64,000 bases of DNA from a virus, in the IMG/VR virus record IMGVR_UViG_3300033148_003055, positions 1-64,000 of that record. One strand, written 5' to 3'. The notes under the pieces are model-generated. The model ran no database searches. It worked only from the letters and a program-made list of their open reading frames with translations, and was not told the DNA's origin. Of this stretch, positions 1 to 49,543 are shown piece after piece; the stretch's first letter is position 1; each line of letters starts with the position of its first letter. A program made the translations under genes and the position numbers.

Positions 1-154
1 ACTTCGTGACGCCCTTGTCGTAGGAGTACGTCACACCCCCGGCGGTCTCGCCGAGGGCCTGACGCTTCTTGGTGATCATCGTGGAACCGGGGAAGGGGCC
101 GGGGAGAGTGATGTCTCCCCCGGCCCCGTCGTCGAAGGTTACGGTGACGGCCAT
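1..154 (-). CDS. Tail-region protein, 5' part only (runs off the window)
   Basis: ATG at 154 with GAGGAGG RBS; reads MAVTVTFDDGAGGDITLPGPFPGSTMITKKRQALGETAGG, open to the window edge; follows the tail tube gene. Confidence 0.6.
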   Translation of the reverse strand, partial: MAVTVTFDDGAGGDITLPGPFPGSTMITKKRQALGETAGGVTYSYDKGVTK

Positions 155-46689: not shown

Positions 46690-47288
46690 CACTTCCCCCA
46701 CTTCGGGATGAAGTGATTCCCACACTCCGGGCACTTCACTTCCGCCATGGATTCGTCAACGTCTTTTTCGTCGTACACCTTTTTGGGTCGGACGAACCCG
46801 TCTATTTCCAGTTGACTGAACCCTGTCACTTTCTCGAGCTCGGCCACCTCAATCTTGCGGCGGGACTTGAACATCTTCGCCAGCTTGGCGTGATCCCAGT
46901 CCGCGAACTCGCCCGCCTTGTTGTCGGACAGGGCGAACTCCTCGGCGGCCTTCCGAGTGTCGAAGGTCCTCCAGTGGACCCACACCGTCTCGGCCTGCTC
47001 CCACCCCTCCTTGCGGAGCTGGAGCAGGGCCTTGTATCGCGTGTTGCCGGCCCAGATCGTTCCGTCGGGTGTGGCGACGATCGTCCCGGCGAAGCCGTGT
47101 TCCTTGATGAGCTTGGCCACCTTCGGGACGGCGTCCTCGTTGAACCGCGGGTTGTCCGCCCACGGCGTCAGGTCGTCGAGCGACACCTCCTGATACTGGG
47201 CCTTTAACCGTGCCCGCTGGAGCTTGGTGTGCCCCCAGGGGGACGGCTCCGCCTTGATCGGGCGGCGTTTCACCGTTCGCTTCGCCAT
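46689..47288 (-). CDS. ParB/Srx-like domain protein
   Basis: LTPWADNPRFN, AGNTRYKA, SDNK, C-terminal CPEC. Confidence 0.88.
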   Translation of the reverse strand: MAKRTVKRRPIKAEPSPWGHTKLQRARLKAQYQEVSLDDLTPWADNPRFNEDAVPKVAKLIKEHGFAGTIVATPDGTIWAGNTRYKALLQLRKEGWEQAETVWVHWRTFDTRKAAEEFALSDNKAGEFADWDHAKLAKMFKSRRKIEVAELEKVTGFSQLEIDGFVRPKKVYDEKDVDESMAEVKCPECGNHFIPKWGK

Positions 47289-49543
47289 TACTTACTCCTC
47301 GCATTTTGGATACGATCGTTCGCTATATCACACGACTCTTGATCCTTCTCGAACCCCAAGAATGGTCTGTCTTCCAACACGCACGCCACCCCTGTCGACC
47401 CCGACCCTGCGAATGGGTCGAGCACGAGCCCACCGGTCGGCGAACTCAGGAGGGTGAGCAGGTACCGCATCAGCTTCAACGGTTTTACCGTAGGATGGCC
47501 ATTCTTAGTGCCAGCAGGCAGACCCGCGTTGCGTTCCGCCTTGCTGGCCTTGGCGCAGTAGAAGAATCGCGACGCGCCTCCCGTATCACCATAGCAAGAG
47601 TCACTATCATAGCGACCGCCTCCGAAAGCAGCATTACTGCTATGCGTCGGTACTTGCGGATGACTGCCGGGGCATTCACCGCTCTGCTCATCGAGCATCG
47701 CTCCGGCTTCCTCATCCAGAATCAGATTCGCGGGCCAGCGGCCAGCTTGGCACCTCGTGCTAATCGACGGTTTGGGAGTGCTGCCCTGGCTCCCCCAATT
47801 ACAACCATTAGATTGCCCGCGATCTTCCCTGAAATTACCGCCATCACCATCGGCAATCTTTATCCTCCCCCCATCCACGTTCAGCCCTGCCACGCCATGC
47901 TCTTGCGCATTCGCAGCGTATGTCCCATCGAGCGGCTTCATGGCAAGGATGATCGGCTCCCAGGCTGGCTTCAGCGCCGTCCCCCAGCCATCCCACAACT
48001 TGGCGGCGTCGGTGGCGGGGGCTGTGACAACAGCTTCGTGACTCGGACCTAACCTCTTATTGTTTGGGTCTGTCGTAGCACCAACTGGGAGATTGCCCTT
48101 TCTGCCCCGATCTGCATACTTGCCCTGACCTACCACTGCCCGCTCTGCCCCAGCCGCCTTGTCTATCGCCTTGCTGATATCATGTGACTTCGGGAAACCC
48201 GAATTGCCGGTGACAAACACTTTACCGTTACGGCGAGCGACGAATGCCCCCGTTGGAACTTTCACACACCAGACCTTTCCGACGTAATGAAAGGGACTGA
48301 TCCTCGCCAGATCGGTTCTGGTGTGCCGTGTGCCTCGAACAGTTTGTGGTCCCGGTTGCTTCTGAACAGTGCTAGGTTGCAAAGCCGGTTGTCCTGTGGC
48401 TTGTGATTCATGTGATGGACCGTCTCGACCCGTTGTAGACATCGCCCTAATGCTTGCGCTACAAGAAGTCTGTGCTCCATCACGTAACCGTCCTTGCGGG
48501 CCATCGCCCGGAATTCCTGCGGGCATCTGACATACTTGATCGCCGGATAATTCCCGTGCTTCCTGAAGTACGTCACCCCGCCCTTCCATGCAGGATTGTT
48601 TGGCCCCATCATCTTTTTCCTGTAAGACTCCATTGATGTTTCCGTCCACCCGGCACGTCCTTTGTGTCCGTGCTTGCCCCATTCTTCCCCGCGCAACTTC
48701 CCGTTGCACTTTCGGGAGCAAGTCGGTTTTGCTGCTCGCACAAGGTGGCTCGGCGCACGGTGAAACCGCTTTCCGCACACAGCGCAAGTCGCGTTCAGCT
48801 TCGCCGTTCGTCTCTCTGGCCGCGGACCCATTATCGCTTTTGCCGCACACGCTTTCCCGCATGTCTTGTTCCGTGCCGCCTGCTCCCTCGTGCGACAAGG
48901 GAAAGGCTTGGAGCAGACCTTGCACATCTTCCAGAACGGGTACACGCACTTGGCGTTTGCGTGCGGCTTCTTCAGCAAGCTGGAATACGAAAGCTCCGCC
49001 TTGTTCAACAAGGCAGCGATGATTTCTGGAGACGATCTGGTCTGTAGAATCCGATTGAATTCTGAACGCGGTATCGTCGTAGTCGTAAACATACAGGGCC
49101 TCAATTTCTTGCCATGAGTACTCATCTCTGACATTATTATAGCATAATGCGAGACGCCCTGTCAAGGCTTTATTGTAAGGCTCCCACCGCCCGTCTACAA
49201 GAATCTCTGTGTCCTCACTCAGACATCCGTACAACCACATCAGACAATCGCGTATCTCCCAGCCCGCGTCCTCGATAGCGCACATCAGCCGGTGATGGGT
49301 TCGCGTGCCGCCGAAGGCCAGCATCATGGCTCCGGGCTTGCAAACACGCAGGGCAGCTTCCCAGAACTCGACACCGGGTACGCCCTTATCCCAGCCCTTG
49401 CCCATGAACTCCAGACCGTATGGCGGATCGGTGACGATGAAGTCGACTGACTCGGCCTCCATCTCGGCCATGCCTTCACGACAGTCCATGCACTGAACCG
49501 GAAGCGGACGTCGTTTGATAATTCGACGACGCTTGACCATCAC
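47288..49543 (-). CDS. DNA amino-methyltransferase (N6A/N4C) interrupted by an intein
   Basis: TDPPY, WLYG|SGFPKS split by insert, HPTVKP, VLDPFAGSGST. Confidence 0.93.
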   Translation of the reverse strand: MMVKRRRIIKRRPLPVQCMDCREGMAEMEAESVDFIVTDPPYGLEFMGKGWDKGVPGVEFWEAALRVCKPGAMMLAFGGTRTHHRLMCAIEDAGWEIRDCLMWLYGCLSEDTEILVDGRWEPYNKALTGRLALCYNNVRDEYSWQEIEALYVYDYDDTAFRIQSDSTDQIVSRNHRCLVEQGGAFVFQLAEEAARKRQVRVPVLEDVQGLLQAFPLSHEGAGGTEQDMRESVCGKSDNGSAARETNGEAERDLRCVRKAVSPCAEPPCASSKTDLLPKVQREVARGRMGQARTQRTCRVDGNINGVLQEKDDGAKQSCMEGRGDVLQEARELSGDQVCQMPAGIPGDGPQGRLRDGAQTSCSASIRAMSTTGRDGPSHESQATGQPALQPSTVQKQPGPQTVRGTRHTRTDLARISPFHYVGKVWCVKVPTGAFVARRNGKVFVTGNSGFPKSHDISKAIDKAAGAERAVVGQGKYADRGRKGNLPVGATTDPNNKRLGPSHEAVVTAPATDAAKLWDGWGTALKPAWEPIILAMKPLDGTYAANAQEHGVAGLNVDGGRIKIADGDGGNFREDRGQSNGCNWGSQGSTPKPSISTRCQAGRWPANLILDEEAGAMLDEQSGECPGSHPQVPTHSSNAAFGGGRYDSDSCYGDTGGASRFFYCAKASKAERNAGLPAGTKNGHPTVKPLKLMRYLLTLLSSPTGGLVLDPFAGSGSTGVACVLEDRPFLGFEKDQESCDIANDRIQNARSK
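48262..49134 (-). CDS. HNH homing endonuclease with zinc fingers, nested out of frame within the intein
   Basis: CKVC/CGKAC/CAVC/CSRKC, NPAWKGG, GYVMEHRLLVAQALGR...VHHMNHKPQDNRLCNL; real start may be 49125. Confidence 0.88.
   Translation of the reverse strand: MSEMSTHGKKLRPCMFTTTTIPRSEFNRILQTRSSPEIIAALLNKAELSYSSLLKKPHANAKCVYPFWKMCKVCSKPFPCRTREQAARNKTCGKACAAKAIMGPRPERRTAKLNATCAVCGKRFHRAPSHLVRAAKPTCSRKCNGKLRGEEWGKHGHKGRAGWTETSMESYRKKMMGPNNPAWKGGVTYFRKHGNYPAIKYVRCPQEFRAMARKDGYVMEHRLLVAQALGRCLQRVETVHHMNHKPQDNRLCNLALFRSNRDHKLFEAHGTPEPIWRGSVPFITSERSGV
49136..49165 (-). promoter_or_regulatory. Consensus sigma70 promoter inside the intein coding sequence
   Basis: TTGACA-N18-TATAAT with TGn extended -10, directly upstream of the nested HNH ORF. 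Confidence 0.8.

Follow-up and report, generated by a model that had tools for sequence, protein, structure and literature searches.

A phage DNA methyltransferase intein that probably carries a separate HNH endonuclease gene in its +1 frame

The IMG/VR virus record IMGVR_UViG_3300033148_003055 holds the complete, 81.6-kb genome of an uncultured phage with terminal repeats. Its first 64,000 nucleotides, the stretch analyzed here and called the window below, contain on the minus strand a gene for an N6/N4 DNA methyltransferase (methylase) interrupted by an intein-coding insertion of 341 amino acids (aa). We conclude that this insertion is very probably two things at once: an intein, with a spliced methylase as its product, and a separate gene for an HNH endonuclease, read in the +1 frame of the same strand. 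The dual coding is conserved in relatives of this locus, where both frames are kept open by selection. A promoter-like element lies within the coding region of the N-terminal splicing domain, from which the nuclease gene may well be transcribed independently.

Results

Two open frames in one DNA

The list of open reading frames (ORFs) of the window contains a 751-aa ORF (47288..49543), within which a 290-aa ORF (48262..49134) lies on the same minus strand in the +1 frame. The parts of the two genes are as follows.

47288..49543, minus strand: DNA methyltransferase precursor ORF, 751 aa counted from GTG 49543, composed of N-extein, intein and C-extein
49226..49540, minus strand: N-extein, with the DPPY motif within it and the C-terminal end ...LMWLYG
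48203..49225, minus strand: intein of 341 aa with C1 at 49225 and N341 at 48203, then Ser +1 (SGFPKS)
48929..49225, minus strand: N-terminal splicing domain, intein aa 1-99, with block A (CLSEDTEILV) and block B (SRNH)
48314..48928, minus strand: intein-frame filler, aa 100-304, 205 codons without stops
48203..48313, minus strand: C-terminal splicing domain, aa 305-341, ...VWCVKVPTGAFVARRNGKVFVTGN
47291..48202, minus strand: C-extein, 304 aa, with the S-adenosylmethionine-binding region near its end; the stop codon is at 47288-47290
48262..49134, minus strand: nested HNH ORF with two zinc fingers, +1 frame, at most 290 aa, stop TGA at 48262-48264
48706..48924, minus strand: two Cys4 zinc fingers, C57/C60/C78/C82 and C103/C106/C125/C129
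48334..48474, minus strand: HNH catalytic motif, H207, H226, N239 and H249
48929..49092, minus strand: dual-coding stretch, intein block B together with the first ~55 HNH residues (+1 frame)

Three-frame translation finds the methylase/intein frame open throughout and the +1 frame open from 49164 down to the TGA at 48262-48264; stops abound in the third frame, with nine of them over the HNH region. Codon shuffles of the window HNH gave an expectation of 7.1 stops in the intein frame, and just 0.05% of the shuffles had none. A first-pass annotation, made from the letters of the window, had placed the elements at these coordinates and had described both frames as free of stops over the nested HNH region; the ORF list and the translation agree with the former, and the translation with the latter.

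Conservation of the layout in relatives

Scanning of IMG/VR with the single window HNH protein found no relative, and an alignment of two HNH proteins was needed, which yielded 99 relatives; the best 80 of these were kept. An HNH at +1 within a long ORF free of stops is found in 79 of the 80, and the GC content of these loci ranges from 0.30 to 0.70. Inteins with both ends at the same ...YG/C...TGN/SGFPK site make up 56 of the 80; a further 23 are intein-free insertions slightly further downstream, similar to the ShiLan domain of mycobacteriophage methylases, and one (L035) is a free-standing gene. Two other sources gave the same picture. A tblastn search of GenBank phages found LR756508.1, an AT-rich phage of 484 kb, in which methylase and intein share one frame and the HNH, 43.5% identical to that of the window, is at +1. 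In a genome collection, a long covering ORF is present in 16 of 18 loci, with both intein ends in 10, and the bins or genomes that contain these loci carry the labels of many phyla. None of the IMG/VR loci, LR756508.1 or the genome-collection loci was found to have its HNH in frame.

For quantitative comparisons, near-duplicates were removed and the window and LR756508.1 were added, giving a non-redundant set of 50 intein loci; 43 aligned sequences served for the invariance of intein and HNH residues and for profiles. Over the HNH region, the intein frame contains no stop in any of the 50 loci, against a median of 10.7 expected from shuffles, and the third frame has a median of 11.5. The HNH frame is likewise free of stops in all 50.

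Per-position codon variability (entropy), calculated from a methylase-frame codon alignment of the 50 loci, locates the selection. The third codon position is the most variable, with 1.5-1.9 bits, across the exteins and across blocks A, F and G of the intein, as is usual for a frame that is translated. Over intein codons 100-299 it is the first position that varies most (1.3-1.8 bits), the second and third being lower. The first position of the intein frame is the wobble base of the +1 frame, and selection in codons 100-299 therefore acts on the HNH protein. In codons 50-99, which contain block B (...TDQIVSRNHRC.VE.GG...), both readings are constrained: third-base entropy of conserved four-fold codons is 0.89 bits there (n=8) versus 1.88 bits in the non-overlapping parts (n=30; Mann-Whitney P 2.7e-5). 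The first ~55 HNH residues and intein block B are thus co-encoded, and both are under purifying selection. With both frames open in 79/80 IMG/VR and 16/18 genome-collection relatives and selection acting in each, dual coding, which the first-pass annotation had read from a single sequence, is shown.

The intein and its filler

The insertion lies between ...LMWLYG and SGFPKS... of the methylase, begins with CLSEDTEILV and ends with VFVTGN. In the intein-less methylases of related loci, for example L060 and L083, the same site is uninterrupted (...YGSGFPKS...). C1, the block-B histidine H69 and the terminal asparagine N341 are invariant in the 43 aligned inteins, and the residue following the intein is serine in all listed loci. 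A profile of the intein frame from the 43 relatives matches the solved AceL NrdHF intein (6zgq_A, E 6.4e-8, positions 6-90) and, in the same search of the Protein Data Bank, 9hth_A (E 0.0022); the matches cover the N-terminal domain only. The NCBIfam model rSAM_Rv_intein matches 20 of the 43 relatives and the window with an E-value of 5.8e-4. By insertion site, catalytic residues and sequence homology the element qualifies as an intein, and the intact splicing ends claimed for it from the window sequence are borne out by the relatives. Protein splicing is the probable outcome, since the frame is kept open by selection and the catalytic residues are invariant. The splicing domains presumably adopt the Hint fold, and the filler between them is probably disordered.

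The middle 205 codons of the intein frame, earlier noted to be devoid of motifs, are indeed filler. In the window this part is composed of 24% hydrophobic residues and 44% S/T/N/Q/G/P; the splicing domains contain 43% hydrophobic residues. The second codon base of the filler is fixed by the HNH protein, and avoidance of stops is the sole selected property seen in its intein frame.

Inteins of class 3 carry a Trp-Cys-Thr signature. Residues 319-320 of the present intein, Trp-Cys in block F (48266-48271), and residue 339, Thr in block G (48209-48211), are invariant in the 43 sequences and recall this signature, though Cys1 is invariant as well.

The nested HNH endonuclease

All eight cysteines of the two zinc fingers and the catalytic residues H207, H226, N239 and H249 are invariant in the 43 sequences, whose HNH proteins are 46-66% identical to that of the window. 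The Pfam family HNH_3 matches 41 of the 43 aligned relatives (best E 1.6e-11). The zinc-finger HNH endonuclease that had been recognized by eye at 48262-49134 thus stands as such at the level of the family. A search of solved structures with the HNH profile found no relative, the best hit (E 0.14) being zinc-finger noise.

The free-standing relative L035 (L035:2483-3199) codes for 239 aa, 59% identical to the window HNH over 200 aa. It has its own TATAAT and Shine-Dalgarno sequence, and no ORF overlaps it. It aligns with the window HNH from the first zinc finger onwards and lacks the ~55-residue N-terminal extension of the nested versions.

A promoter-like element inside the intein-coding region

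The following features precede the HNH coding sequence.

49136..49165, minus strand: sigma-70-type promoter-like element, with -35 TTGACA at 49160-49165, an 18-nt spacer, TG at 49143-49144 and -10 TATAAT at 49136-49141
49123..49125, minus strand: near-leaderless alternative ATG, beginning 11 nt past the last base of the -10
49090..49102, minus strand: GAGG (49099-49102), a 6-nt spacer and ATG 49092, the best-supported HNH start, giving a 276-aa product

The element, which had been spotted in the first pass as TTGACA-N18-TATAAT with an extended -10 and is indeed found at 49165..49136, has 12 of 12 consensus bases and TG at -15/-14. Its full form, TTGACA-N18-TGcTATAAT, is matched once in the 64 kb and in 0 of 100 shuffles. 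It is written in intein codons 21-30 (A-L-T-G ... L-C-Y-N), with the TG and the -10 forming the codons for Cys-Tyr-Asn. An extended -10 (TG plus at least 5/6 bases) occurs at the identical position C1+84 in 30 of the 50 non-redundant loci, against a background of 17 matches among 92,913 positions elsewhere in these ORFs. A full -35/-10 pair is present in 15 of the 50 loci, with a spacer of nearly always 17 nt, the optimal length.

Because Cys-Tyr-Asn/Asp is conserved as protein, the expectation was determined by synonymous resampling, in which amino acids were held fixed and codons were drawn by each locus's extein usage or by the GC content at third positions (GC3) of the intein. Extein codon usage predicts 15.6 extended -10 elements and 7.0 full promoters, intein GC3 16.1 and 7.3. 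The observed 30 and 15 are reached in 0-1 of 2000 simulations, the 30 in none of 2000, and codon choice therefore about doubles the number of promoter matches.

Start codons of the HNH frame are found 7-10 or 43-49 nt downstream of the -10. An HNH-frame ATG at C1+127..145 is present in 32 of the 50 loci, 17 of them with a Shine-Dalgarno sequence, and most of the loci lacking it have an ATG 7-10 nt past the -10. The latter position, with a frame open to the HNH, occurs in 16 of the 50 loci and would be a leaderless start. In the window, ATG 49134, the first of the nested ORF, is 1 nt past the -10 hexamer; being so near, it would lie upstream of any transcript start and could not be transcribed from that promoter. 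The first-pass annotation had chosen ATG 49125 and a near-leaderless transcript. Its distance of 11 nt from the -10 is correct; as a start, GAGG-N6-ATG 49092 is better supported, and its position is the commonest one in the relatives.

Transcription of the HNH gene from a separate promoter is the likeliest route of its expression, and we hold it to be reasonably probable. The proposal of the first pass that expression is uncoupled from the host gene stays conditional; it now draws comparative support from the conserved -10, the resampling and the in-frame starts. A search of sequencing runs turned up no RNA run with this sequence, and a single DNA run that contained only 9% of the sampled words.

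Some T4 endonuclease genes have hairpins that mask the ribosome-binding site. In a read-through mRNA of the window (49070-49200, minus strand, 131 nt), the predicted fold has -40.5 kcal/mol (z -2.95; equalled by 1 of 200 shuffles), and in its predicted long-range hairpin GAGG and ATG 49092 are paired with bases that precede the putative internal start of transcription. The 60-nt leader derived from the promoter is predicted to be unstructured (-4.8 kcal/mol, z +1.46). Upstream pairing of at least 8 of the 17 bases from Shine-Dalgarno to AUG is found in only 11 of 31 loci, and RNAalifold on 31 sequences predicted 0 consensus pairs. A masking hairpin was for these reasons rejected as a conserved feature and is retained as a lead specific to the window.

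Possible transfer between alleles, and variant loci

In six pairs of loci the intein DNA is more alike than the flanking exteins (240 nt on each side). Identities of the intein and the two exteins are 97% versus 84% and 84% for L010/L011, 95% versus 78% and 67% for L070/L073, 89% versus 64% and 55% for L009/L011, and 87% versus 73% and 70% for L025/L031. This pattern suggests recent transfer between divergent alleles. A further comparison concerns L011 and L012, in which the intein and 240 nt of the N-extein are 100% identical and 240 nt of the C-extein only 65%, which suggests a recombination breakpoint at the 3' end of the intein or just past it.

Two loci depart from the usual spacing. In L043 and L048, the HNH zinc finger begins about 500-660 nt past C1, compared with about 274 nt in the other loci, and a second insertion may account for the extra open sequence that separates the HNH from the N-terminal splicing domain.

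Intein-free methylases form a group of their own, comprising L055, L056, L058-L064, L066, L068, L069, L071, L072, L074-L077 and L079-L083 from IMG/VR and L096-L100 from the genome collection, all with ...YGSGFPKS... uninterrupted. They have a shorter HNH homologue in the +1 frame, located in open filler between SGFPKS... and ...GWGTALKPA.EPI. Among the carriers in the genome collection are cultured strains: L089 (Plastorhodobacter daqingensis CGMCC 1.12750, contig NZ_JBHTFQ010000006.1) has the intein with its +1 HNH inside a 990-aa ORF, and L096 (Cupriavidus sp. UYPR2.512) has the intein-free kind.

Genome setting

Genes on the minus strand follow the order primase-helicase, the 751-aa ORF (47288-49543), a ParB-like gene and a C5 methylase. 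The 751-aa ORF matches the Pfam family N6_N4_Mtase with an E-value of 3.2e-25, and the likely start of the methylase is ATG 49540, with AGGAG upstream of it. GC content falls to 0.47-0.52 in 48900-49300, the coding region of the intein N-terminus, from about 0.58-0.65 in the surroundings, a dip located where the promoter-like element and the leader lie. Beyond the window, the same phage has a second, distant HNH-like match (G000:C1:72439-72654, minus strand), 43% identical over 81 aa (E 8.3e-8) and contained in an open frame of 226 aa.

Discussion

A proposed composite selfish element

We propose that the insertion is a composite selfish element within the phage methylase gene. The methylase gene would be translated straight through the 341-aa intein, whose splicing domains of ~99 aa and ~37 aa surround the hydrophilic filler of 205 aa, and splicing would join ...WLYG to SGFPKS..., yielding an active methylase of 409 aa. 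The same DNA in the +1 frame would serve as a separate gene for a 276-aa HNH protein, kin of free-standing phage HNH genes. This endonuclease would presumably cleave methylase alleles that lack the intein, with the whole element copied in as a consequence (homing). The HNH gene is probably self-expressed, from the promoter at 49165-49136 and then from ATG 49125 or, more likely, from GAGG-N6-ATG 49092. As to the origin, a free-standing HNH gene most likely invaded an intein at the site known from the mycobacteriophage in-frame LAGLIDADG intein; the surviving insertions would be only those that left the intein frame open.

A wider reading attributes three layers to the DNA of the N-terminal domain, namely the Hint fold, a full expression signal of the nuclease, from the -35 and extended -10 to a leaderless or Shine-Dalgarno-led start, and a functional extension of ~55 residues, with transcription of the nuclease independent and the whole an old and successful module distributed across phages of many bacterial phyla, not a passing accident en route to an in-frame intein. 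We put this forward tentatively, as somewhat short of probable. If it is true, production of the endonuclease is transcriptionally independent of the methylase gene.

Several observations weigh against these readings. The loci compared are related, so that the promoter statistics overstate independence; the extended -10 is missing in 20 of the 50 loci and the full promoter in 35, and the conserved Cys-Tyr-Asn/Asp residues account for part of the -10. The consensus applied is that of sigma-70, and the rules of the host may differ. The HNH_3 match of the window itself (E 1.9e-4, 21.4-21.5 bits) is below the curated cut-off of 24.8 bits. The N-terminal extension is lacking in L035. On the intein side, Pfam Intein_splicing matches only 3 of the 43 relatives and the window is not among them, its intein frame having no Pfam intein match. 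The penultimate residue is glycine instead of the histidine usual in inteins.

Alternative explanations

The HNH could be made without a promoter of its own, through internal initiation on the mRNA of the methylase, or through a programmed +1 ribosomal frameshift that would produce a fusion of N-extein, intein N-terminal domain and HNH, the promoter-like sequence being a by-product of the Cys-Tyr-Asn codons. The loci without the extended -10 fit this, the amino-acid sequence alone predicts about half of the observed -10 matches, and the Shine-Dalgarno sequence with ATG at C1+133..139 could serve on any mRNA. A fusion product would likewise be compatible with the constraint on the overlap in codons 50-99. 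We nevertheless consider expression by such means unlikely: the doubling of promoter matches by codon choice exceeds what the protein demands (0/2000 simulations), the element of the window is perfect and unique in 64 kb, and an open in-frame ATG stands 7-10 nt past the -10 in 16 of the 50 loci. Of the two routes, internal initiation is the main alternative to an own transcript. A programmed +1 frameshift is unlikely because stops of the HNH frame occur upstream of the conserved ATG in every locus, in variable places, and because RNA structure is not conserved; the HNH frame is out of reach of a -1 shift.

It is very improbable that the element is decaying, that is, an ancestral in-frame HNH intein that suffered two frameshifts, leaving an untranslated HNH relic in a mini-intein with a long loop. 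A sub-threshold HNH_3 score in the window and the absence of the promoter in 20/50 relatives would be in keeping with decay. A relic would hardly remain under purifying selection with wobble positions the most variable over 200 codons, keep eight zinc-finger cysteines and the HNH residues invariant at 46-66% identity to the window, and preserve start codons and a frame without a stop in 50 of 50 loci; moreover, the greater likeness of inteins than of exteins in several pairs suggests recent transfer.

An artefact of assembly or sequencing, in which two compensating indel errors at the domain borders had displaced the HNH of an in-frame intein, is practically refuted by the same +1 layout in independent relatives from many samples and of GC 0.30-0.70 (79/80 IMG/VR loci, LR756508.1 and 16/18 genome-collection loci), with indels between relatives all multiples of three and the HNH in frame in none of them, even though indel errors do occur in metagenome assemblies and the one DNA run found contains just 9% of the sampled words. 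Compensating frameshifts, named by the first-pass annotation as what would overturn its reading, are accordingly excluded by a layout kept at 46-66% HNH identity to the window.

Implications

Many independent sequences show that a free-standing gene for a putative homing endonuclease can persist within an intein and stay unfused. The host frame need only stay open, and the nuclease retains its own frame, its start codon and probably its own promoter. Such a layout supports the view of intein origins in which the splicing domain came first and the endonuclease invaded later. Gene callers report only the long ORF; the nuclease therefore goes unannotated, and 200 filler residues enter protein databases as an apparent domain. 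The overlap of block B with the nuclease N-terminus is a compact natural example of one DNA encoding two proteins under selection. With cultured carriers in the genome collection, such as L089, the element is open to ordinary experiments, and L089 and L096 are possible experimental systems.

Comparison with known systems

Inteins of actinophages in which the endonuclease is encoded in another frame or on the opposite strand have been described (Gosselin, Arsenault, Gogarten, bioRxiv 10.1101/2025.01.02.630785), so that the guess of the first-pass annotation that similar nested designs exist in phages was right; the hidden HNH of mycobacteriophage methylases (PMC11855218), compared below, bears it out too. 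The authors of the actinophage study proposed invasion by free-standing endonuclease genes and reported signs of continuing transfer. The present element is like their non-canonical inteins in having splicing domains in the host frame and an endonuclease nested in another. It differs in the nuclease and its frame: as published there, the out-of-frame type is endonuclease VII-like and in 'frame 3', their HNH inteins being in frame, whereas the window has an HNH in +1. The hosts differ as well, being DNA polymerase, minor capsid protein, TerL and thymidylate synthase in the actinophage set and a methylase here, and the present family comes from uncultured phages of widely varied GC content, unlike the actinobacteriophage set. 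The word 'promoter' is absent from the main text of that paper, its supplements apart.

The ShiLan domain of mycobacteriophage DNA methylases, an HNH hidden out of frame (Arsenault, Gosselin, Gogarten 2025, PMC11855218), shares with the window the methylase family and a host frame open across an HNH in another frame. The two HNH proteins are homologues, 29% identical over 164 aa (E 1e-16). As described in the published text, the ShiLan domain has no splicing domains, is retained in the mature protein and occupies a different site, further downstream than the window intein, whereas the window HNH is inside an intein with flanking splicing blocks. These blocks rule out classification of the window insertion as a ShiLan domain. 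For the ShiLan HNH, a third frame and a leaderless GTG start were proposed; the window HNH is in the +1 frame. The intein-free loci described above are similar to the ShiLan domain, but with the HNH at +1 and not in the third frame published for ShiLan.

Methylase inteins of the LAGLIDADG type are known from mycobacteriophages, namely Lilac gp101 and ShiLan gp65 (Gosselin et al. 2023, PMC9957025). They have the same insertion site as the window intein (WLYG/.../SGFPKS in ShiLan gp65) and homologous splicing domains; identity with the intein of Lilac gp101 amounts to 63% over the C-terminal 40 aa (E 2e-13) and to 25% over the N-terminal 71 aa (E 5e-7). Their endonuclease, as described in that paper, is an in-frame LAGLIDADG-like domain with no second frame involved, whereas the window uses a second frame. 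Fractured genes, in which a free-standing endonuclease gene lies between the halves of a split intein (Dassa et al. 2009, PMC2677866), resemble the present element in that a free-standing homing endonuclease gene is lodged in an intein-coding region. There, host gene and intein are divided into two ORFs and spliced in trans, whereas the intein frame of the window is continuous.

Our literature searches, supplements apart, found no paper that describes a methylase intein with an HNH in a different frame, or a promoter inside an intein. Publications of 2025 describe out-of-frame endonuclease inteins and, for this methylase family, a hidden HNH. What stands outside the published types, supplements and a 2026 preprint aside, is the HNH in the +1 frame of a methylase intein, together with its spread beyond actinophages, the conserved promoter-like element and the co-encoded N-terminal extension.

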